From contig JAHFGO010000002.1 in the NCBI GenBank assembly GCA_023247385.1, positions 5,220-37,532 on the forward strand: a stretch of DNA of 32,313 nucleotides. Direction: 5' to 3'. A model generated the notes under the pieces. It did no database searches. It worked only from the letters and a program-made list of their open reading frames with translations, and was not told the origin of the DNA. A program made the translations under genes and the position numbers. Numbering within the stretch: the stretch's first letter is position 1; the number at the start of each line of letters is the position of its first letter. This document shows, one piece after another, positions 4,987 to 32,313 of the stretch. This DNA is from Candidatus Omnitrophota bacterium (GTDB lineage: Bacteria; Omnitrophota; Gorgyraeia; 2-01-FULL-45-10).

Positions 4987-6152
4987 GAGCGGTATTTTTT
5001 CATTTCATCGCTAGTGAGGTAGTCAAGCAAAGCCAGCGATAACCCTAAAAAAGGCAATGGGTCGGATAGCGACCATACGGCATGACAATTGTTTTTTTCA
5101 AATAATTTAAAGACATCAAGATCAAATTTCCTTTGGGCGGTTAAATTTGCGAGAAAATTCATAAAATCACCCTGCATAAACCAGCGAAACTTCACACCTG
5201 CCTGATATTCAAAATGAGGCGCGATATCACCATGTACGGCAAGTTGATACAGTAGATAAGGAATGTTAATTCCGGAAGAAATCGCTAGCTGTAATGACCC
5301 CCATAATCGCGGGTTCACTTCCATTAACTTTGGGGAGCCATTTCTTTGATCGATCTTAAACTCAATATTTGCGCTCCCGTACCATCCGATAGAGGTAAGC
5401 AACGTTTCTGCTATTTCTATGAGTCGAGGAAATTTTACCGACACCGCATAAGTACTCGCCCCGCCTGTGACAGGGTACTGACGCAGTTTTTTGTGCACAA
5501 AGGCGCTCCGCATCTGATTGCGCGCATTAAAAAGGACTGATACGCCATAATAGTCATTACCAGGAATATATTCCTGCATTAGAAACGTTCCGTATTTCTT
5601 ACGCATGCTATCGCAGTGCGCATCAGACGTATCTTTGGTAAGCACATAGCGAATTCCATGGCCGCCAGTGCCAATAACAGGCTTCAACACCAAAGGAATT
5701 GACAACTCCTGCATACCCCTTTGGGCATCGTCAAGCGTATTAATCATCAATGTCTTTGGACAGGGTATTCCAAGTTTCTGGGCATGAGTGAGAAGGCTAA
5801 ATTTATTGCGCGTAAAAGCGAGTGTTTCGTATTGAGTGAGCGGTATACGAATATATGATGAAAACTCTGAAGTGTGCTGCGCTACCAATAAGCTCGTTTC
5901 TTCTTCCGGAGTAATAAGAACATCGTATTTATTGGATTTAACGGTAAGTTTAAGCCAAATCAGGAAACCATCCGAATTTTTCTCGGGAGAGGGATAAATA
6001 TATCTATGGCTAACATATCGAGAGAGCAGGGCCGGAGCCATCCAAGTGCGTTCCCCCACGGCAACTTTAACTCCAGAATGAGATAATGCCCTTACGGCTG
6101 CGAGAGATTTGCGCCAAATACCATCGGTGACAAGCACGCTTTTATTACGCAT
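4983..6152 (-). CDS. ATP-grasp domain protein (carboxylate-amine/thiol ligase type)
   Basis: 389 aa. Rossmann-like pre-ATP-grasp N-terminus ('VLVTDG...AAVRALSHSGVKV') is followed by 'PLVLKPVIGTGGHGI', 'LMQEYIPG' and 'NIEFKID...PKLMEVNPRLWGS', which resemble the nucleotide- and Mg-binding segments of ATP-grasp enzymes. 8-nt overlap with the upstream gene. Confidence 0.7.
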   Translation of the reverse strand: MRNKSVLVTDGIWRKSLAAVRALSHSGVKVAVGERTWMAPALLSRYVSHRYIYPSPEKNSDGFLIWLKLTVKSNKYDVLITPEEETSLLVAQHTSEFSSYIRIPLTQYETLAFTRNKFSLLTHAQKLGIPCPKTLMINTLDDAQRGMQELSIPLVLKPVIGTGGHGIRYVLTKDTSDAHCDSMRKKYGTFLMQEYIPGNDYYGVSVLFNARNQMRSAFVHKKLRQYPVTGGASTYAVSVKFPRLIEIAETLLTSIGWYGSANIEFKIDQRNGSPKLMEVNPRLWGSLQLAISSGINIPYLLYQLAVHGDIAPHFEYQAGVKFRWFMQGDFMNFLANLTAQRKFDLDVFKLFEKNNCHAVWSLSDPLPFLGLSLALLDYLTSDEMKKYRS

Positions 6153-25240: not shown

Positions 25241-25570
25241 TTGGAACCTATAATAAACTCAAAGAAAGAACGCTTGAACCTATCCCCGGAACAGCTCTTC
25301 GACATATATCTGGAGTGCAACGCTCCGGGAGCTCCTGTAAAGACTATTCTGGGCCGTTACGGTCTAAAGCCCTGGGACTTGATCGCCATACGCAAAAAGG
25401 TCAAGGCAGCGGCTTTGGAAGCCCTCGCCCATCCCGGGAAACGGGGACGAAAGCAGCAGGCTATTCCCGTAGAACAGTATCACCAAGTCTCAAAAGAGCT
25501 AACCGAAACCAAAGACGCTCTCGCTGCCGTAGGGCACGAGCTATCCTTATTAAAAAAAAGGACGATTTAA
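25241..25570 (+). CDS. IS transposase OrfA (HTH DNA-binding protein)
   Basis: 109 aa. TTG start preceded by AAGGAGG (25229-25235) and a TATAAT box (25217-25222). Helix-turn-helix-like N-terminus and a C-terminal leucine-zipper-like segment, as in IS3 OrfA. Confidence 0.8.
   Translation: MEPIINSKKERLNLSPEQLFDIYLECNAPGAPVKTILGRYGLKPWDLIAIRKKVKAAALEALAHPGKRGRKQQAIPVEQYHQVSKELTETKDALAAVGHELSLLKKRTI
25552..25559 (+). promoter_or_regulatory. Programmed -1 ribosomal frameshift site (A8 run, A-AAA-AAA)
   Basis: orfA frame reads TTA AAA AAA AGG. Slipping -1 gives AAA AAA AAG GAC GAT and continues the long orfB frame (..LLKKKDDLKLKG..). This heptamer type is classical for the IS3 family. Confidence 0.6.
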
Positions 25571-26652
25571 AGCTAAAAGGACCGCTAAATGGTCATTACA
25601 AATCTGATATTAAAAGAGCTGTGGTTACCGTGATAAACGAATCGGTCACTCAAGGTCTTACCCAGAAACGCGCCTGCGGTATATTCGGGATCGCTCCCAG
25701 AAAGTTCCGCAGGTGGGCAAACCCGAAACCGGTTAAGCCAAGGGTTGCCTGGAATAAGCTCCGCGAGCATGAGCGCGACGCCATTGAGTCCGCTACCTGG
25801 GAACCTGAACTTATCGGCAAACCCATAAGCCATATCTTCGTCCACGGGCATAATTCCGGTCAGTTCTTTGCGTCGTTATCGACGGTATATAGCGTGCTAA
25901 AAGAAAAGAATCTTGTTCAGCCACTCAACCGCAGGCCCAGGACAGCGTCTTATGTCAGCGCTCACACCCTCTTAGACGAAGGCTTTTCGCTTCTCTGTTA
26001 TGATGGAACATCATTTAAGACTGAATCCGGCATTACCGTCTGGGCTATTCCGGTTATGATCCTGCCCCAGAGATACCTGCTTCATATAGGGCATTCCATA
26101 AACGGGATATCGGCGAGCGATCTTACGCGTTCTATCAAGGAAGCGTACGCGATGCTTCCGGAACACTTGACCACAAAGCTTGTCGCTCATTCAGACAGAG
26201 GCTCAGCGATGAAAGCATCGTCTACAAGAGAGCTTATCAAAGAACTATTAGGCGCACCTGTTCACTTTGGTCGTCCTCACACGCCGGATGACCAGGCGTG
26301 GATCGAAGCGTTCATCAAGACGCTTAAACATCGCAGGGACGCTCCACAGACATATAATCTGGTTGACGACATTATTCAATGGCTCAACCGCGTTCCTGAT
26401 ATCTACAACAACGACCCTCACAGCTCGTTAAGCTACGTTACACCACTTGAGGCGCTGTCAGGCCAAAAGGAGGTGATCCTAAATCAGCGAAAACAAAATC
26501 TTGCGGCGGCTCGCTTGTTACGCTATACTGCATGGAAGAACGAGTCTTCGACTCCTTTTCCAACGGCAGCGCCAGCATTGGCTTGCTTGAGCCGAGCCTT
26601 AAAAAGCTCAAGCGAAAGCAAGCCAGGAAGTAGTAACGCAAAACGTTTTTGA
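25552..26652 (+). CDS. IS transposase OrfB (DDE/rve integrase core), expressed as OrfAB fusion by -1 frameshift
   Basis: The frame is -1 relative to orfA. DDE candidates are 'LLCYDGTSF', 'AHSDRGSAMKAS' and 'DQAWIEAFIKTLKH', with 36 residues between the second D and the E. No independent start is needed after the slippery site. Confidence 0.8.
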   Translation, partial: KKKDDLKLKGPLNGHYKSDIKRAVVTVINESVTQGLTQKRACGIFGIAPRKFRRWANPKPVKPRVAWNKLREHERDAIESATWEPELIGKPISHIFVHGHNSGQFFASLSTVYSVLKEKNLVQPLNRRPRTASYVSAHTLLDEGFSLLCYDGTSFKTESGITVWAIPVMILPQRYLLHIGHSINGISASDLTRSIKEAYAMLPEHLTTKLVAHSDRGSAMKASSTRELIKELLGAPVHFGRPHTPDDQAWIEAFIKTLKHRRDAPQTYNLVDDIIQWLNRVPDIYNNDPHSSLSYVTPLEALSGQKEVILNQRKQNLAAARLLRYTAWKNESSTPFPTAAPALACLSRALKSSSESKPGSSNAKRF

Positions 26653-26732: not shown

Positions 26733-27086
26733 CTATTTAACTTCTTTCAATAACTTTTTGGGATACTTCCAGCTCGAATCGTTTGTTATAGCTTTATTTA
26801 GATACTGCACAACCATGGGTTTCATTTGCGTATTGTTCATCTTCCAGATACCATATGCCTGAACGGTGGCCCCAAATGCTACTATTTTAGGGTCGTTGGT
26901 TTGATTTCCAGATATTTCTAATATTTTTCCTAAATAATCCGCAGCCTTTTTGTACTCTCCATTTTCAATCGCAGTTTTTCCGGCCTTAAGCAGTGTTTCT
27001 GTATCTGCGGTATAGGCAACGGCTGTCATTCCTAATATCGTCATGATACATAGAATACAAAATATAGGCTTCGTAGGATTTTTCAC
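26733..27086 (-). CDS. Small secreted/membrane-anchored TPR-like protein
   Basis: Signal/anchor 'KPIFCILCIMTILGMTAVAYTA|D', then a TPR-like helix pair 'LLKAGKTAIENGEYKKAADYLGKILEI'. I prefer the GTG start at 27086 (4 nt after the upstream TAG). The alternative ATG at 27128 overlaps the upstream gene by 38 nt. Confidence 0.5.
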   Translation of the reverse strand: MKNPTKPIFCILCIMTILGMTAVAYTADTETLLKAGKTAIENGEYKKAADYLGKILEISGNQTNDPKIVAFGATVQAYGIWKMNNTQMKPMVVQYLNKAITNDSSWKYPKKLLKEVK

Positions 27087-27090
27087 TTGA

Positions 27091-27561
27091 CTATTCTTTC
27101 TTCTCTCTAATATAGAATAGCAAACCAATGCCTATCCTAGCTATCAAAAAAATCACAAACAGTACATTGAAATATGAAAAAAACAGTGCTGGATCAATAT
27201 CCGGCTTACCAGTTCGAGTACCTGTAGAAAAGATAAACCCGATTGCCATGGATATTGCTAATCCAAGACTTAAAAATATAATCTCACGCTTCGTTATCGA
27301 CATAGAACTATTACTATCTTTCTCACGATGTCTTAATATATCTATTAGATTTAAGCCTATTACGCCTAGCACAAATATAAAAAATATTTTCCATCCGAAA
27401 ATTATGAGAAACATAATTGATGACAGCATACGAAATAATAGACTGTGATCTCGTATAGGATACCGTATCAAAAAGAATAAAGCAAGTACCATTAGACAGA
27501 GCACGATGGTATTACAGATGAATAGCAAATGTTGTGTAACGGAATTATTTACTATCTTCAT
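27091..27561 (-). CDS. Small integral membrane protein (about 4 TM helices), unknown function
   Basis: 156 aa and very hydrophobic, with four ~20-aa hydrophobic segments. Starts 3 nt after the stop of the giant gene. About 27-30% GC. Confidence 0.6.
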   Translation of the reverse strand: MKIVNNSVTQHLLFICNTIVLCLMVLALFFLIRYPIRDHSLLFRMLSSIMFLIIFGWKIFFIFVLGVIGLNLIDILRHREKDSNSSMSITKREIIFLSLGLAISMAIGFIFSTGTRTGKPDIDPALFFSYFNVLFVIFLIARIGIGLLFYIREKKE

Positions 27562-27564
27562 AAA

Positions 27565-30500
27565 TTAATATTTTGTTCCTATCTGATCTATCTCGTTATA
27601 TATATCGACTGGTGAATATTGGAACTGGTCGGTTACAAAAAGCGGACGGTTGGCTTTTTGATATACATATTTAATCATTCCGCTACAAATAAATGATGTC
27701 TCCGATCTTTCATTTAATCCAAATAGATTAAGGGAGTTATACGGAATATGCTTTGCCTCCTCTGTCCCTGAGACAAGTAATTCTTGTCGTATTGTTGTAG
27801 CCATAGCACCTGCATCTATATTATTTCTTCTGCCGATTTGAATATCATTTCCTTCGGCCACCATTCGGGTCATAAATTCTGTTAATTTAATTTTCTGGAG
27901 GCCCGTGTCAGATAGCATCTCCAGCACCCATTTTTCGCCATTTGAATCAACATATAGCATCCCCGTGTGATTGGTAGGCCCTTGAGTAATATCTTTTGTT
28001 GTATCAGCTAAAAATCCTCTTCCGTTTACAAATATTATATCACCTGTTTGCCCAATAGTTGATATTTTTTGATATTCATTCAGTAAACGTGTTTCGATCT
28101 CGTTATTTGTCCTAAATCCTCGCCATCCTGATGCATTATCGAATCTTTCTTCTACGTTTGACCATATCCCTGGCTGGGATAATTTTGTCCACACATTTTC
28201 AGTTTGTTCATGCGTTGACCAATAAAACTTTTTCGATACGTCTCTATCGGAAGATTTGGTTAATGATATTTGTGCACCGTAAAGATCTTCTAATGTAAAA
28301 CCGTATTCTGAAAATTTTTGAAGATCACCGTCGAACATGTTCCCATGACCATATCGGCTATTGTAGTATTTAACAAAACCATCTTTTAAACTGACATTAA
28401 ATGGTTGGCTATAGGAATTTATCTTTGCATCCACATAATCACCATATGAATCATATCCGATAGATTTTCCAGATAAATATGGATGTGTTTCACTTAGTGT
28501 TCGACCGGTGAAGGAATCGGATATAGATTGATACTCTGGCAAGCCCCATTTGAGGCGTTGTTCGGTGGTGAGACCGTAGGAGTATTTGGATTCGAGGTTG
28601 GCATCGGTGTAGCCGAGCTTGCCGTAGGGGTCGACGCCAAAAGAGCCATAGCCTAAGTGCGAGCCATCTGGAGTAATGTCTTCCTTGCCTGCAAGGCTCC
28701 AGATGAAGGAGGCGCCGGCTTGTTTTTGCTCGAAGAGGGCGGTTGTGGTTGTGCCAGCCTGAGGGTTTGATATGGCGATCCCTGTAAGCTCTTTTCCATC
28801 CTTCAATATCTTTGGTGAGCCAAGGCCTTCATCGAGCCCATGCTTAAAGTATTCGCCTATTGAGAGGCCTGTCTGGGTGATGGAGTTGACTGCTGTGGCG
28901 CTAAAGAAGCTTGTGGCGTATTCATCTAAGGCCTTGACGAAGCCTTTTTCTTGAACTATGCCAGAGAAATCCATGATATTGGCTTTGTAGACAGACTCCT
29001 GCCAGTAGTAGTTGGACCATGCCTTGTCGTAGGAGGCTTGGTTGAAGTCATACTGTTTTCCATCAGCTGAAGACGTCCAGAACTTTTGATCGCCTCTATT
29101 TGGGGTTTCAGCATAGCCTAGGTAGGTGAGGGCATTGTCTTTATAGGTGGTGAACGCATCCTTTAATGGCTCTTTATCCTTGGCCTTGTCGCTTAGGCCT
29201 GATTTTATGCCTGCCTGCAGGGCTGTGGATATAGCGCTATAGCCTATGTTAGCAAGGAGAGGATTTAGGCCTAGTTCCTGGGTGGCGTAATTCAAGCCTA
29301 TTGAGGTTACGCCTTGTAATAATCCTGTGGTAACACTTTGGAACATAGTTCCTGCATCCCAGCCTGATCCAAGGCCTGTACCTACGGCTGAACTTATTCC
29401 TATGGATAGGAGGTGGTTGACGCGACTGTCTATGCCTAAGAGCTCGCCTACCTCTATTATGCCGGTTCGGGTCGCTTCCTGTATTAGCATAGGCGCGATG
29501 TCTTGCATTATGTCAGTATAGGATTTGCCTTTGAAGCCGCCTTCTACAAGTGAGCCGGCGGTGATTGCGGCGATGTGGGTGAGGTTAGGGTCAAGGCCTG
29601 CCGCTTTACCTAATGTATCGACGCCAGCTATTGTGCCGTATTTAAGGGACTCGCCGATTATGTTGCTTACTGAAGCGCCTGGTGAAATCGCGCCCATGAT
29701 AGCGCCTGTAGTGAGGGCTGCTCCGATGGACGCAAGACCCGGATCTATTTTCATGGATTTGAACATCAAGTCTGTGCCAAGGCTTATGCCTTGAGCGATT
29801 ATACGATATCCGATAGTTTGCGCTGCGGCTTGAGTTACACCGGGTGCGCCAAGGGTCATGATATGACCTATGCCAGTAGCTATTTTGGCAGCGACGTCAG
29901 CGATTGGTTTGAATATAGAGGCGACGGCTGTGAATGCGCCTTTTATGGATGCGAATATTCCAGTGCTTGCAGCGGTAGAGCTGCCGGCTGCGACTGCGCC
30001 GCCTGCAGCAGCACCGCTTGCAACGGTTCCGCCTACGGCAGCCCCGGCTGCAACAGTGCCACTTGCGGCGGCAGTTCCGCCTGCGGCAGCTCCGCTTGCA
30101 ACGGTTCCGCCTGCAATTGTTCCAGTTGTCGCTGCGGCACCAGTTGCAGCGGTAGTTCCGGTTTGAGCAGCACCACCTATTGGGCCGCCCCCGCCAAATG
30201 CGACAGTAAGCACAACTGCTACAGCAGTTTCAACGACCGCCCACATCACATCCTGCCAGGTTCCAACCCGAACTACAGCGGCTAGCGTATGAACCAACAG
30301 GTTAAAGCCTAAAATCGCGGCGCCTAGAGGCATGAGCGGCGTTTTTAAAAGAACTGATCCGATAATTATAAGGATAGGCGATATAACCTTATTGTAGAAG
30401 TTATACACACCCTTCAAGAACTTCTTCCACCAGCCGCTGCCGCGGATCATCTTTTCCTGGGAGGAATTTAAGAGCTTGCCGGAGGATTCCTTTGAGAGGG

Positions 30501-32313
30501 CGTAGCCGCGCCACATCTCCATGAATTCGGATCTTGAGACGGTGATCTCCTGGCCGTTCTTACCGACGGTGGAGTCGATGTAGGTGATGATACCGCGAGC
30601 GTCATCGATGGAGGTGATGGTGACGAAGTGTTTGCCGTCGATGTGGATGATGACGCCTTCAGGGACAGTCCCCTGGGCGCTCGGGGTAAGAGAGTTGGCC
30701 GGGGACAGTCCCTTCAACATCGGGGACAGCGCCTTCAGCTCGTCGTAGGTGAGTTTGAGGGAATAGAGTTTTAGGCCGGCTAATTTAGCGGCCTTGCGCA
30801 TGGCGTACATTGAGATGACGAGATCGCCCTTGGTGTCTTTGGTGATGACGCCGGTTAGGATATCGATTAGGATCGCGGTCTTACCGATATCCTCAAAGGA
30901 CTTGTCTATGCCGGAGGCTTTAAGCATAGATACAACACTCTGGATCGCGCTGTCTCCAAAATGCAGGGACTGGCTCTCGAGCCATGAGATGATTGAATCT
31001 ATGTCGGATTGGGTGAGGGTGACGACTTCATCCGGGGATAAACCAAGAGTTTTAGGGACAGTCCCCTGGGCACTCGGGGTAAGAGAGTTGGCCGGGGACA
31101 GTCCCTCACTACTCGCTGGGGGCAGTCCCTGAAGCGTTGATTTAAGCGCATTTATGATATTGGCCTTCCGGGTGGCTCTTTCGGCATATTCAGAGAGGCC
31201 CTTCAGATACTTTGTAATTTCAGAAGGCGTAACTGCCTTGAGTTTGGCCTTCGCGATGTCAATCCAGTATTTTAGGTCCTCTTCTCCTGGGTCTCTACCT
31301 AAGACACTCCTATAATAGTGGTAGATTACAGGCGCTGACTCCTTCTCAACGATGTCGCCTAAGACCTTGTTGTAGTCATTATTGATGAAGCCCTGAAGCG
31401 CGGTAGAAGAATCGGAGGCAATCTTGACCCTCGCGTCAGTTACCTGCCTGGCTAAATCCTCATAGGCGCTCCTTTCCTGCGCAACGAGGTTCACCTCATA
31501 TTCATCGAGTTCCCTGAATACCCTGTCGAATTCCGAGAGGTCGTATATGGAGGAATCATACTTGGCCTTCTCTTTGGTGAGTCTTTCGCGCTCGTTCAAG
31601 ATCTGGGCCTTGATATTCGCCACCTTGGAGACGATGTCGGTTTTGGCGTCAGCTTCGGCCTGCGTTAACCTCGTAAGGGCGGAGTCCTTCTGAGCCGCTA
31701 TCTCGGAAACCGCCTTTTGGTAACCCTCCTCTAACTTCTTCCTCGCGTTGATGAATGTTGTTTTGACGATATTTTTCTTGGCGTCGTACTTATATCTAAT
31801 GTGGACTGTCCCGTCTTTTCCTATAACTTTAGTGGCGAGGCTGTTCTCAAAATATGTCACCGTATGTGCCGCTGTAACTATCTTCCTGGGCGCGTCAGCG
31901 GCCTTGTCGTAGATGATTATTATCTTCTCTGAATCGCTTAATCTGGAGCTTGCTATATCCTCTCTCGCCTTTTCGATAAGGCTTGGGCTGAATACGAGGC
32001 TTGCCAGATCAATGTCTCCCTTAGAGTAAGTCCTGACAACGCCGTCTTCTTTGACATTGACGAACATAATGCCGTCGGGATTCTGCGTAGAAGCGACATA
32101 ACCTATTTTTACCGCGCTAAGCTGGGGGCTGACAGACGGGTCGGCTGTTGAGAGGATTGCCCTGTACTGCAGGTATCTGGCGGGCCTTGAGGCGAGCTGG
32201 CTCGACCAACCAGCCCATGAGCCGTCATCAGGATTGGAGGTATCCCCTGTCCTGGTCTCGATGGTTATGGCTGTGCCGAGAGGGGTTGAGCCATCCAAAG
32301 AAATTGTATTGAG
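27565..32313 (-). CDS. Giant multidomain surface/effector-like protein, 5'-partial (>1,580 aa): coiled coil, DUF4214-like, Cys-less C39-like peptidase fold, TM + Gly/Ala-rich region, C-terminal permuted papain-like (YiiX/C92-like) domain
   Basis: The frame stays open to the window edge, so the listed 'M' is an internal TTG.
- Residues ~185-300: heptad-rich.
- 'YHYYRSVLGRDPGEEDLKYWI': DUF4214-like.
- Residues ~425-600: resemble a C39 peptidase ('VIIHIDGKHFVTITSIDD', 'ITYIDSTVGKNGQEITVSRSEFMEMWRGYAL'), but 'LHFGDSAIQS' replaces the Cys motif.
- Residues ~636-705: TM helices.
- Residues 701-780: G/A/T low complexity.
- Last 162 aa: 'GDIIF', 'NHTGMLYV', 'VLEM', 'IPYNSLNLF', 'FICSGMIKYVY'. The His-before-Cys order is as in YaeF/YiiX permuted NlpC/P60-like enzymes. 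Confidence 0.8.
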   Translation of the reverse strand, partial: LNTISLDGSTPLGTAITIETRTGDTSNPDDGSWAGWSSQLASRPARYLQYRAILSTADPSVSPQLSAVKIGYVASTQNPDGIMFVNVKEDGVVRTYSKGDIDLASLVFSPSLIEKAREDIASSRLSDSEKIIIIYDKAADAPRKIVTAAHTVTYFENSLATKVIGKDGTVHIRYKYDAKKNIVKTTFINARKKLEEGYQKAVSEIAAQKDSALTRLTQAEADAKTDIVSKVANIKAQILNERERLTKEKAKYDSSIYDLSEFDRVFRELDEYEVNLVAQERSAYEDLARQVTDARVKIASDSSTALQGFINNDYNKVLGDIVEKESAPVIYHYYRSVLGRDPGEEDLKYWIDIAKAKLKAVTPSEITKYLKGLSEYAERATRKANIINALKSTLQGLPPASSEGLSPANSLTPSAQGTVPKTLGLSPDEVVTLTQSDIDSIISWLESQSLHFGDSAIQSVVSMLKASGIDKSFEDIGKTAILIDILTGVITKDTKGDLVISMYAMRKAAKLAGLKLYSLKLTYDELKALSPMLKGLSPANSLTPSAQGTVPEGVIIHIDGKHFVTITSIDDARGIITYIDSTVGKNGQEITVSRSEFMEMWRGYALSKESSGKLLNSSQEKMIRGSGWWKKFLKGVYNFYNKVISPILIIIGSVLLKTPLMPLGAAILGFNLLVHTLAAVVRVGTWQDVMWAVVETAVAVVLTVAFGGGGPIGGAAQTGTTAATGAAATTGTIAGGTVASGAAAGGTAAASGTVAAGAAVGGTVASGAAAGGAVAAGSSTAASTGIFASIKGAFTAVASIFKPIADVAAKIATGIGHIMTLGAPGVTQAAAQTIGYRIIAQGISLGTDLMFKSMKIDPGLASIGAALTTGAIMGAISPGASVSNIIGESLKYGTIAGVDTLGKAAGLDPNLTHIAAITAGSLVEGGFKGKSYTDIMQDIAPMLIQEATRTGIIEVGELLGIDSRVNHLLSIGISSAVGTGLGSGWDAGTMFQSVTTGLLQGVTSIGLNYATQELGLNPLLANIGYSAISTALQAGIKSGLSDKAKDKEPLKDAFTTYKDNALTYLGYAETPNRGDQKFWTSSADGKQYDFNQASYDKAWSNYYWQESVYKANIMDFSGIVQEKGFVKALDEYATSFFSATAVNSITQTGLSIGEYFKHGLDEGLGSPKILKDGKELTGIAISNPQAGTTTTALFEQKQAGASFIWSLAGKEDITPDGSHLGYGSFGVDPYGKLGYTDANLESKYSYGLTTEQRLKWGLPEYQSISDSFTGRTLSETHPYLSGKSIGYDSYGDYVDAKINSYSQPFNVSLKDGFVKYYNSRYGHGNMFDGDLQKFSEYGFTLEDLYGAQISLTKSSDRDVSKKFYWSTHEQTENVWTKLSQPGIWSNVEERFDNASGWRGFRTNNEIETRLLNEYQKISTIGQTGDIIFVNGRGFLADTTKDITQGPTNHTGMLYVDSNGEKWVLEMLSDTGLQKIKLTEFMTRMVAEGNDIQIGRRNNIDAGAMATTIRQELLVSGTEEAKHIPYNSLNLFGLNERSETSFICSGMIKYVYQKANRPLFVTDQFQYSPVDIYNEIDQIGTKY
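29959..30198 (-). repeat. Gly/Ala/Thr low-complexity coding repeat with ~78-bp periodicity
   Basis: Encodes GGGGPIGGAAQTGTTAATGAAATTGTIAGGTVASGAAAGGTAAASGTVAAGAAVGGTVASGAAAGGAVAAGSSTAAS. The 21-mer ccgcttgcaacggttccgcct recurs at 30014-30034 and 30092-30112. Confidence 0.8.
30661..30713 (-). repeat. 53-bp direct repeat copy 1 (encodes GLSPANSLTPSAQGTVP)
   Basis: agggacagtcccctgggcGctcggggtaagagagttggccggggacagtccct. Identical to 31054-31106 at 52 of 53 positions. Contains the palindrome GGGACAGTCCC twice. Confidence 0.9.
31054..31106 (-). repeat. 53-bp direct repeat copy 2 (encodes GLSPANSLTPSAQGTVP)
   Basis: Same sequence with a single G->A difference. The offset between copies is 393 bp = 131 codons, so it is in frame. 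Confidence 0.9.

Follow-up and report, generated by a model that had tools for sequence, protein, structure and literature searches.

A giant Omnitrophota protein with exchangeable C-terminal tails as a candidate polymorphic toxin

The giant gene and the closest described systems

Polymorphic toxins such as CdiA of contact-dependent inhibition (CDI) and the Rhs/YD proteins are built from a conserved repeat trunk, a pre-toxin region and a sharp junction, behind which the toxin tails are swapped (PMC3482391). Small downstream genes co-vary with the tails, orphan cassettes lie near recombinases or transposases, and several loci are present per genome. Much the same layout was found in the family of a giant gene of a Candidatus Omnitrophota bacterium (NCBI GenBank assembly GCA_023247385.1, contig JAHFGO010000002.1). 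The DNA analysed, called the window here, is a stretch of 32,313 nucleotides (positions 5,220 to 37,532 of the contig, forward strand), and the giant gene enters it from the far end on the minus strand. The gene probably encodes a Sec-exported polymorphic toxin of Omnitrophota with a YiiX-type warhead and adjacent immunity candidates.

Minus-strand positions 27565-32313 comprise 1,582 codons followed by a stop, with no upstream closure at the window edge. A first-pass annotation, written by a model from the letters of the window, had stated that the open reading frame (ORF) runs off the window. The frame is indeed open to the edge, and the whole gene is called at 3,467 amino acids (aa) on the source contig (ENA ERZ27297570, 99,895 bp), which was reached via an exact match to the 156-aa protein encoded beside it. 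The window holds the C-terminal 46% of the giant protein (its last 1,582 residues, numbered here from the window edge). About 1,885 further residues lie upstream of the window and include Laminin_G_3 (precomputed Pfam labels on the source contig).

Several features separate the giant protein and its family from known polymorphic toxins. No two-partner secretion (TPS)/FHA, PAAR/VgrG or WXG/LXG domain is present in the family, only a Sec-type signal. The junction motif reads Y[ND]SYG[DE]YVDAKI, not VENN or PxxxxDPxGL. Between trunk and toxin the family has, in addition, a C39-fold module, a double-glycine-like site in cis and a hydrophobic/small-residue module of ~500 aa, and it occurs almost exclusively in Omnitrophota.

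A C39 fold inside a polymorphic toxin, with a Gly-Gly-type site in cis, is known from StbD-CT of Citrobacter rodentium (bioRxiv 10.64898/2026.05.07.723447), and auto-processing in cis by a C39 domain after Gly-Gly within a CdiA-like toxin is experimental in that preprint. In StbD-CT the toxin is the C39 domain itself, which possesses the catalytic Cys and follows its site, whereas in the giant protein the domain is mid-protein, has Ser for Cys and precedes the site by ~20 aa, so that a C-terminal fragment would be released. With the peptidase domains of PCAT1, ComA and LahT and with HlyB, the giant protein shares the fold, an aligned His and Asp (PCAT1), an adjacent double-glycine-type sequence and transmembrane (TM) helices next to it. 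Unlike PCAT-type exporters it has no ATP-binding cassette (ABC) part and no nucleophile Cys, and its would-be substrate is in the same chain. With Tox-Act1/TseH and YaeF/YiiX it shares a conserved His before Cys, a C92 match, use as a C-terminal warhead and a membrane protein encoded adjacently. By sequence its tail falls in the YiiX clade, whereas Tox-Act1 and TseH are in separate clades (PMC12994826). Its delivery vehicle is unrelated to type VI secretion (T6SS), unlike that of Tox-Act1/TseH. The large clostridial and MARTX toxins combine a receptor-binding part, an internal autoprotease, a hydrophobic insertion region and a warhead in one polypeptide. Their likeness to the giant protein is analogy only: they have another domain order and an inositol-phosphate-dependent cysteine protease fold, with no sequence relationship.

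Giant proteins have been described in this phylum. Two preprints note C39 domains in far larger Omnitrophota giants and speculate on cleavage (bioRxiv 2023.11.21.568195; bioRxiv 10.64898/2026.06.07.730766). The Omnitrophota giants known as 'Archaeovorins' and those of Dockerin type share the phylum and C39, LamG and discoidin domains with the present family. They are above 10,000-30,000 aa, with SecA-like domains and many enzymes, unlike the 2,000-7,000-aa family. The main Omnitrophota genome survey reads giant ORFs as adhesins and makes no mention of toxins (PMC10066038), and the lipocone paper reports gigantic Omnitrophota proteins with other domains. In the literature searched, no description of the 2,000-7,000-aa family, its exchangeable tails, cassette genes or cis site was found, in agreement with the first-pass statement that no characterised protein with such an architecture was known.

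Exchangeable tails, the C92 domain and the cassette genes

The family was collected with an exhaustive profile search, which at E≤1e-3 gave 829 representatives and at E≤1e-30 gave 255 clusters. The impression of a rare family, left by a word-indexed search (6 proteins), was overturned by this search. Among the 150 matches listed, the median length was ~3,200 aa, most proteins were 2,000-5,000 aa and the longest was 7,079 aa. Scanning one genome per species gave 51 genomic loci, nearly all labelled Candidatus Omnitrophota; the other labels were 'uncultured Planctomycetia' or 'uncultured bacterium' metagenome-assembled genomes and one 2.6-kb contig binned as Parabacteroides. Since the best locus match to the giant protein is 45% identical, the species of origin is missing from this collection. 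Two or three copies are present in several genomes (L021/L049, L028/L032, JACROU contigs). Alignments across the family show a conserved trunk consisting of a YD/LamG-type adhesin-like part, a stalk, a DUF4214-like motif, a C39 fold, helices, a small-residue module and a pre-toxin domain. The end of the trunk and the tail lie in the window as follows.

28420..28866, minus strand: aa 1150-1298, beta-rich pre-toxin domain, common to relatives with other tails; AlphaFold2 (AF2) predicted local distance difference test score (pLDDT) 80-88
27565..28419, minus strand: aa 1299-1582 and the stop, variable C-terminal tail and putative toxin; catalytic domain at aa ~1405-1582 (Pfam C92, profile)
27967-27969, minus strand: C92 His1449, aligned to the YiiX-like His
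27685-27687, minus strand: C92 Cys1543, aligned to the YiiX-like Cys

The last residues of the pre-toxin domain (aa 1287-1298) are the junction motif YDSYGDYVDAKI, for which the pattern given above is the subfamily form. The first-pass annotation had placed a ~250-aa region of unknown function here; it resolves into the conserved pre-toxin domain and the start of the variable tail. Similarity between the giant protein and its closest full-length relatives ends at about aa 1149-1340, and the relatives nearest in the trunk (L004, L005 and L009; 44-45% identity) bear other or truncated tails. Across the family the C-terminal ~280-500 aa are of at least 33 unrelated types: 115 unique tails fell into 33 clusters, one of 64, one of 9, the C92 type with 5, and 24 singletons. 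Pfam matches in relatives' tails were Ntox10 (86 bits, E=3.6e-24), PT-TG, Abhydrolase_8/DUF676/Tle3, RES and C92.

The junction was compared among subfamily members carrying the motif (22 compared out of 24), using an upstream part of 162 aa that included the motif. All 231 of 231 pairs were homologous before the junction, against 81 of 231 after it. Seventy pairs were at least 60% identical before the junction, and 27 of these had nothing in common after it. At the level of sequence, such a tail switch at a sharp junction is the polymorphic-toxin signature described by Zhang et al., 2012 (PMC3482391).

The tail of the giant protein passed the Pfam C92 threshold (PF05708; cut-off 27), with 31.7 bits for the whole protein and 35.1 bits for the tail alone. 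Its profile matched the B. cereus YiiX-like structure 3KW0 (E=2.6e-8) and E. coli YiiX 2IF6 (E=9.5e-7). His1449 and Cys1543 align with the His and Cys of both structures and do not vary among 7 relatives. Identity to the closest homologues of the tail is 50-81%, and the four closest are precomputed as PF05708. Profile and alignment identify the tail as a YaeF/YiiX-type permuted NlpC/P60 hydrolase with its predicted catalytic His and Cys intact, as the first-pass call of a permuted papain-like C-terminal domain had anticipated.

The likeliest target of the C92 tail would be a lipid or lipoprotein, because permuted NlpC/P60 enzymes are described as lipid-directed, the permuted NlpC/P60 T6SS toxin Tox-Act1 is a phospholipase (activity experimental, with a membrane-associated immunity protein) (PMC12994826), and YiiX-like structures display lipid-binding sites (PMC3142127). 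TseH had phospholipase activity in one assay and none under the conditions of another (PMC12994826). By analogy with Tox-Act1, TseH, LRAT and BcYiiX, the C92 domain would act on lipid acyl bonds.

Two small genes follow the giant gene on the same strand.

27091..27561, minus strand: 156-aa protein with several hydrophobic stretches, candidate immunity protein; starts 3 nt past the stop of the putative toxin
26733..27128, minus strand: small secreted helical protein, second cassette gene; homologues in L055 and L021

The 156-aa protein had no Pfam or PHROGs match. The small secreted protein is called at 131 aa and is probably ~117 aa with a signal peptide. In L055, a 560-aa ORF (P0155) matches aa 990-1582 of the giant protein at 60% identity, and behind it lie two genes, one for a membrane protein of 156 aa (46% identical) and one of 118 aa (65% identical). 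This orphan C92 cassette lies downstream of a different giant family member with its own tail and its own 81-aa membrane gene. L056/L057 carry an orphan C92 ORF at a distance of 4.5 kb from a family member of 3,993 aa with its TPR gene. L021 has a full-length gene ending in a C92-type tail; next come a 134-aa four-TM gene and a 118-aa homologue of the small secreted protein (39% identical). Beside C92 tails, the 156-aa gene is present in the window and L055, and the ~118-aa gene in the window, L055 and L021; neither was found with other tail types. In an iterative search over the downstream genes of 34 loci, the small secreted protein occurred solely beside C92-type tails. The tail and the two small genes appear to move as a unit, as judged from the gene sets of L055 and L021 and from this C92-only distribution, a behaviour expected of a toxin and its immunity or accessory genes. 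For these roles the products of 27091-27561 and 26733-27128 are the best candidates.

Mobile-element genes were seen near several cassettes. Two adjacent tyrosine recombinase genes (L056/L057, 4523-5982) lie immediately upstream of the orphan C92 ORF, 4.5 kb downstream of the full-length family member, and may be machinery for tail swapping. Y1 (IS200/IS605-type) transposases recur near relatives' cassettes (11 loci). In most members with the commonest tail (L001-L003 and many others), the stop is overlapped or directly adjoined by a gene for a small TPR protein with a signal peptide, which may be an immunity protein or a chaperone of the hydrophobic module there. The TPR gene was considered as a universal immunity protein or chaperone and rejected, the small secreted protein of the window being not detectably related to the TPR genes.

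The self-delivering toxins to which the first-pass annotation had likened the giant protein are strongly supported as the analogy by the toxin domains at the same place, the sharp junction and the orphan C92 cassettes. A giant surface adhesin or coat protein, anchored in the producer's membrane by the hydrophobic module, whose variable tail is a cytoplasmic or periplasmic enzyme of the cell's own envelope, with C92 remodelling the cell's own lipids, is an unlikely alternative reading of the same gene. Omnitrophota giant proteins are usually read as adhesins or coat proteins (PMC10066038; bioRxiv 2023.11.21.568195), LamG, discoidin and YD-like domains were found in N-terminal parts of the family, simple topology rules place the C-terminus inside the producer, and a 24-kb lipid cluster lies downstream on the same strand. 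An adhesin of this kind leaves unexplained the Ntox10, RES, PT-TG and Tle3-like tails at one and the same position, the non-homologous tails behind a sharp junction on near-identical trunks, and the orphan cassettes in which a tail comes with small genes of its own. In the window a transposase lies between the cassette and the lipid cluster, and relatives are without that neighbourhood.

The C39-like domain, the leader-like site and the candidate membrane module

The part of the trunk preceding the pre-toxin domain contains a C39-like domain.

30493..31056, minus strand: aa 420-607, C39-like papain-fold domain (AF2, Foldseek, profile, conservation in 110 sequences)
30949-30951, minus strand: C39-like Ser455, invariant
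30628-30630, minus strand: C39-like His562, invariant

The AF2 model of aa 420-680, calculated with 24 family sequences as input, had a mean pLDDT of 86.9. The top Foldseek matches in the PDB were PCAT1 with bound substrate, LahT150 with leader peptide, ComA PEP, 3B79, 3ZUA (the HlyB C39-like domain) and the StbD C39 toxin. E-values against the first five were 1e-5 to 6e-4, with target-normalised TM-scores of ~0.7; the StbD-CT structure 8SSK gave E=5.6e-5 and a root-mean-square deviation of 3.5-3.7 Å over ~167 columns. Pfam C39 (PF03412; cut-off 22) scored 21.6 bits in the giant protein and 24.8-36.1 bits in relatives. The family profile matched the PCAT1 peptidase at E=3e-7, and His562 and Asp580 align with the PCAT1 segments 'AHFVV' and 'ADPGKG', which hold its catalytic His and Asp. 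The C39-like papain fold noted in the first-pass annotation is confirmed in the giant protein by this model and these matches.

Among 110 non-redundant relatives, His451, Phe452, Ser455, Ala456, Gly488, Ser501, His562 and Gly625 were unchanging (110/110), position 580 was D or E in all 110, and position 454 was Q, D, R, H, K or S. Cys was found at 454 or 455 in 0 of the 110, so the canonical catalytic Cys is missing. The first-pass reading of the Cys motif as 'HFGDSA' is correct (aa 451-456). Ser455 probably occupies the position of the papain-fold Cys nucleophile, because the central helix of the model begins at aa 454 and the spacing to the ComA sequence agrees. In canonical C39 peptidases Cys is the nucleophile; those C39-like domains that lack it, HlyB's among them, bind substrate and do not cut it.

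A polymorphic toxin whose C39-like domain serves for docking or as a chaperone and is not catalytic, as in HlyB, is possible, if doubtful. Such a domain would hold the leader-like segment and keep the hydrophobic module export-competent, with release by another protease or none, and the proposal departs from the mechanism given below only in the cleavage step. It is favoured by the 0/110 count for Cys, by the HlyB domain (3ZUA) and 3B79 among the Foldseek matches, and by a Pfam C39 match that spans only model positions ~46-128, outside the Cys-motif part. Retention of Ser455, His562, the acid at 580, Gly625 and A/S626 seems to go beyond the needs of binding, with which it is still compatible.

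The candidate substrate follows the domain in the same chain.

30436..30477, minus strand: aa 613-626, KLLNSSQEKMIRGS, double-glycine-leader-like segment (conservation in 110 sequences; AF2)
Position -1 (aa 626): A/S in 109/110
Position -2 (aa 625): G in 110/110
Position -3 (aa 624): R/K in 106/110
Position -4 (aa 623): I/V in 109/110
Position -8: E/Q in 84/110
Position -11: S/N/T in 97/110
Position -12 (aa 615): L/I in 104/110

Positions were numbered backward from Ser626 and counted in the 110 non-redundant family members. The classic double-glycine leader pattern is L-S-x-x-E-L-x-x-I-x-G-G. The site matches it at 6 of 7 defined positions (-12, -11, -8, -4, -2 and -1), and the predicted scissile bond lies between Ser626 and Gly627. 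The segment is ~20 aa past the C39-like domain, and its end coincides with the start of the hydrophobic segment. In the AF2 model it forms a short helix and then an extended stretch, with pLDDT 94 at aa 610-619. The C39-like domain may cleave this site in cis.

A 56-nt direct repeat is present in frame in the giant gene, in two copies that are 96% identical and each encode GLSPANSLTPSAQGTVP (17 aa).

30658..30713, no strand: repeat copy 1, aa 535-551, in a loop of the C39-like domain
31051..31106, no strand: repeat copy 2, aa 404-420

The copies bracket the N-terminal lobe of the C39-like domain, and either end of each copy is GGGACAGTCCC. The AF2 loop at aa 530-549, around copy 1, had low pLDDT. 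The repeat was not found in the rest of the window or in 57 loci, and its peptide was absent from the homologues.

Three further segments connect the leader-like site to the pre-toxin domain.

30193..30435, minus strand: aa 627-707, three hydrophobic helices (hydropathy, AF2)
29959..30195, minus strand: aa 707-785, G/A/T low-complexity insert (15-nt periodic array; composition)
28867..29958, minus strand: aa 786-1149, small-residue-rich amphipathic module with recurring G[LI][DN]P..L (family-wide conservation)

The 2-3 TM helices of the first-pass annotation correspond to three hydrophobic stretches within aa ~641-707, with hydropathy peaks at aa 643-661, 663-681 and 689-707 and AF2 helices at aa 628-656 and 661-679. 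Its G/A/T low-complexity region was recovered as a tract of 79 aa just past the third hydrophobic helix; A, G, T or S account for 70 of its residues, and its coding DNA is an array with 15-nt periodicity (29972-30127). The tract was not in any aligned homologue and is specific to the giant protein of the window. The following module (aa 786-1149; G+A+S+T = 42%) is a candidate membrane-insertion or translocation module. It had been called small-residue-rich and glycine-zipper-like, of which the composition is real and the zipper was rejected: small-xxx-small motifs numbered 17 against 12.9 ± 3.6 expected, a count reached in 163 of 1,000 shuffles. 'Glycine zipper' is a compositional label here, because the periodicity is not above the composition-based expectation.

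From these parts a sequence of events can be proposed. The N-terminal part would bind the target cell, a prey or a competitor. The C39-like domain, with Ser for Cys and His and the acid kept, would cut in cis after ...L-S-x-x-E-x-x-x-I-R-G-(A/S), freeing a ~950-aa fragment that starts with the hydrophobic segment. The hydrophobic and small-residue module of this fragment would enter the target membrane and carry the toxin across or into it. There the C92 domain would attack acyl-ester or amide bonds of membrane lipids or lipoproteins, like other permuted NlpC/P60 toxins. The 156-aa membrane protein would protect the producer, perhaps with help from the small secreted protein. Autoprocessing is plausible and falls somewhat short of probable; self-translocation is plausible at a lower level again.

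A number of results weigh against the polymorphic-toxin reading. Pfam gives no match for the commonest tail type (64/115). For the C92 tail the AF2 model was moderate (mean pLDDT 65, with 77-92 in parts of the domain), and a Foldseek search with it was uninformative, nothing matching at E<0.01; the C92 assignment is taken from sequence profiles instead. The 156-aa protein is not similar in sequence to the four-TM protein of L021. The C39-like domain could be non-catalytic, since the Cys nucleophile is missing as in the substrate-binding HlyB domain. By simple rules, three helices after a Sec-exported N-terminus would keep the toxin on the cytoplasmic side of the producer. No known trafficking domain was found by Pfam. 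The first-pass annotation had proposed inspecting the upstream genes for a secretion system; the window lacks the upstream side, and among the neighbours of relatives no secretion gene was conserved. Activity, cleavage, secretion and immunity are all inferred for this family from its sequences.

The N-terminal trunk, the genomic setting and significance

The remaining parts of the trunk in the window are as follows.

32098..32313, minus strand: aa 1-72, end of a beta-rich domain (...ARYLQYRAILSTADPSVSPQLSAVKIGY; ...SAVKIGY) (open frame, 42% identity to a P0006 segment)
31759..32097, minus strand: aa 73-185, last YD/RHS-like beta repeats (e.g. HIRYKYDAKKNIV) (alignment to P0002/P0004)
31354..31758, minus strand: aa 186-320, helical coiled-coil-like stalk (composition; family-wide conservation)
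31129..31341, minus strand: aa 325-395, DUF4214-like motif region (PVIYHYYRSVLGRDPG..YW) (Y..YR..LGRDP...W invariant in alignment A1)

The beta-rich N-terminal piece reported in the first pass is present at aa 1-72, and P0006, which matches this segment, is an otherwise unrelated large protein. The stretch equivalent to the YD/RHS-like repeats gave weak Pfam RHS_repeat matches in P0002 and P0004 (18.5 and 23.6 bits; cut-off 22). A coiled coil, as first annotated, is plausible for aa ~186-320 (0 Pro, 3 Gly, 34% charged) from its composition. For the DUF4214-like assignment, the motif proper, YHYYRSVLGRDPG (aa 329-343), is present and invariant in the family. Pfam DUF4214 (PF13946) had no match at E≤1 in the giant protein, and relatives scored 16.8-21.4 bits, below the cut-off of 23.2; the common feature is only a YxxxLGRxPD-like motif.

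N-termini were inspected in relatives. A crude hydropathy screen found a strongly hydrophobic stretch near the N-terminus in 64 of 108 long Met-starting members. Many of the members share a signal-like N-terminus, which occurs in two forms, ...F..QQ[IV][AS]WAGD[LV]... and ...FS[YW][ST]QL[LV][YW]AADVRQMLLDAK..., and is conserved beyond the needs of an ordinary Sec signal peptide (P0007, P0009, P0004, P0025). The commonest neighbours were a histidine kinase (HisKA_7TM/GAF/HATPase) and response regulator(s) just upstream, at 17-18 loci including L001 and L002, which suggests dedicated regulation.

The rest of the window is occupied by other genes. Directly beyond the toxin cassette is an rve_3 integrase-core transposase (25315-26652, plus strand; 340 aa as called on the source contig). 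Positions 20-24712, all on the minus strand, hold a long lipid/polyketide-type biosynthetic cluster that looks like a pathway for an unusual modified lipid. It includes two ketosynthase/chain-length-factor-like pairs, an acyl carrier protein, a FabA-like dehydratase, a short-chain dehydrogenase/reductase, an amine-oxidase/desaturase-like flavoprotein, two B12-binding radical S-adenosylmethionine (SAM) and two SPASM radical-SAM enzymes, an AMP-ligase, lipid-A-type and PlsC-type acyltransferases, a methyltransferase, an ATP-grasp enzyme, a deacetylase/DUF3473, a DedA/VTT protein and a MacB-type ABC exporter.

The window was found to contain neither phage nor secretion genes, and the 20 kb recorded on the source contig contain no phage genes. 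The first-pass annotation had judged that this context cleanly fits neither a self-delivering toxin nor a phage tape-measure protein; its account of absent phage and secretion genes stands, and the two small downstream genes had been overlooked. A tape-measure-like protein, or part of a phage-tail-like injection device with a C-terminal lytic domain, is hardly credible. The likeness is superficial and consists of a long helical region, hydrophobic and Gly-rich segments and a C-terminal NlpC/P60-type domain. This reading was rejected in the absence of PHROGs matches for the giant protein and its two neighbours. No phage structural gene occurs in the window, the recorded source contig or the conserved neighbours of 54 loci. 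Relatives carry the signal-like N-terminus, and genomes hold several copies with differing tails.

The Omnitrophota are widespread, uncultured and very small, and are thought to be predators or parasites. As a polymorphic-toxin family of at least 255 clusters with exchangeable toxin ends, the giant proteins would be the first concrete candidate weapon of this phylum. To the polymorphic toxins they would add a delivery vehicle without a known secretion system, a C39-fold processing module with Ser at the nucleophile position and a substrate-like site in the same chain, and a large hydrophobic module, conserved in the family, that could be a translocation domain of a new kind. Tentatively, and with considerable doubt, the family may represent a phylum-specific, self-contained form of delivery, in which a giant adhesin, a Ser-variant C39 autoprotease, a new translocation module and exchangeable warheads are combined without any known secretion machine. 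If so, warheads including lipid hydrolases, Ntox10, RES and others would reach prey or host cells.

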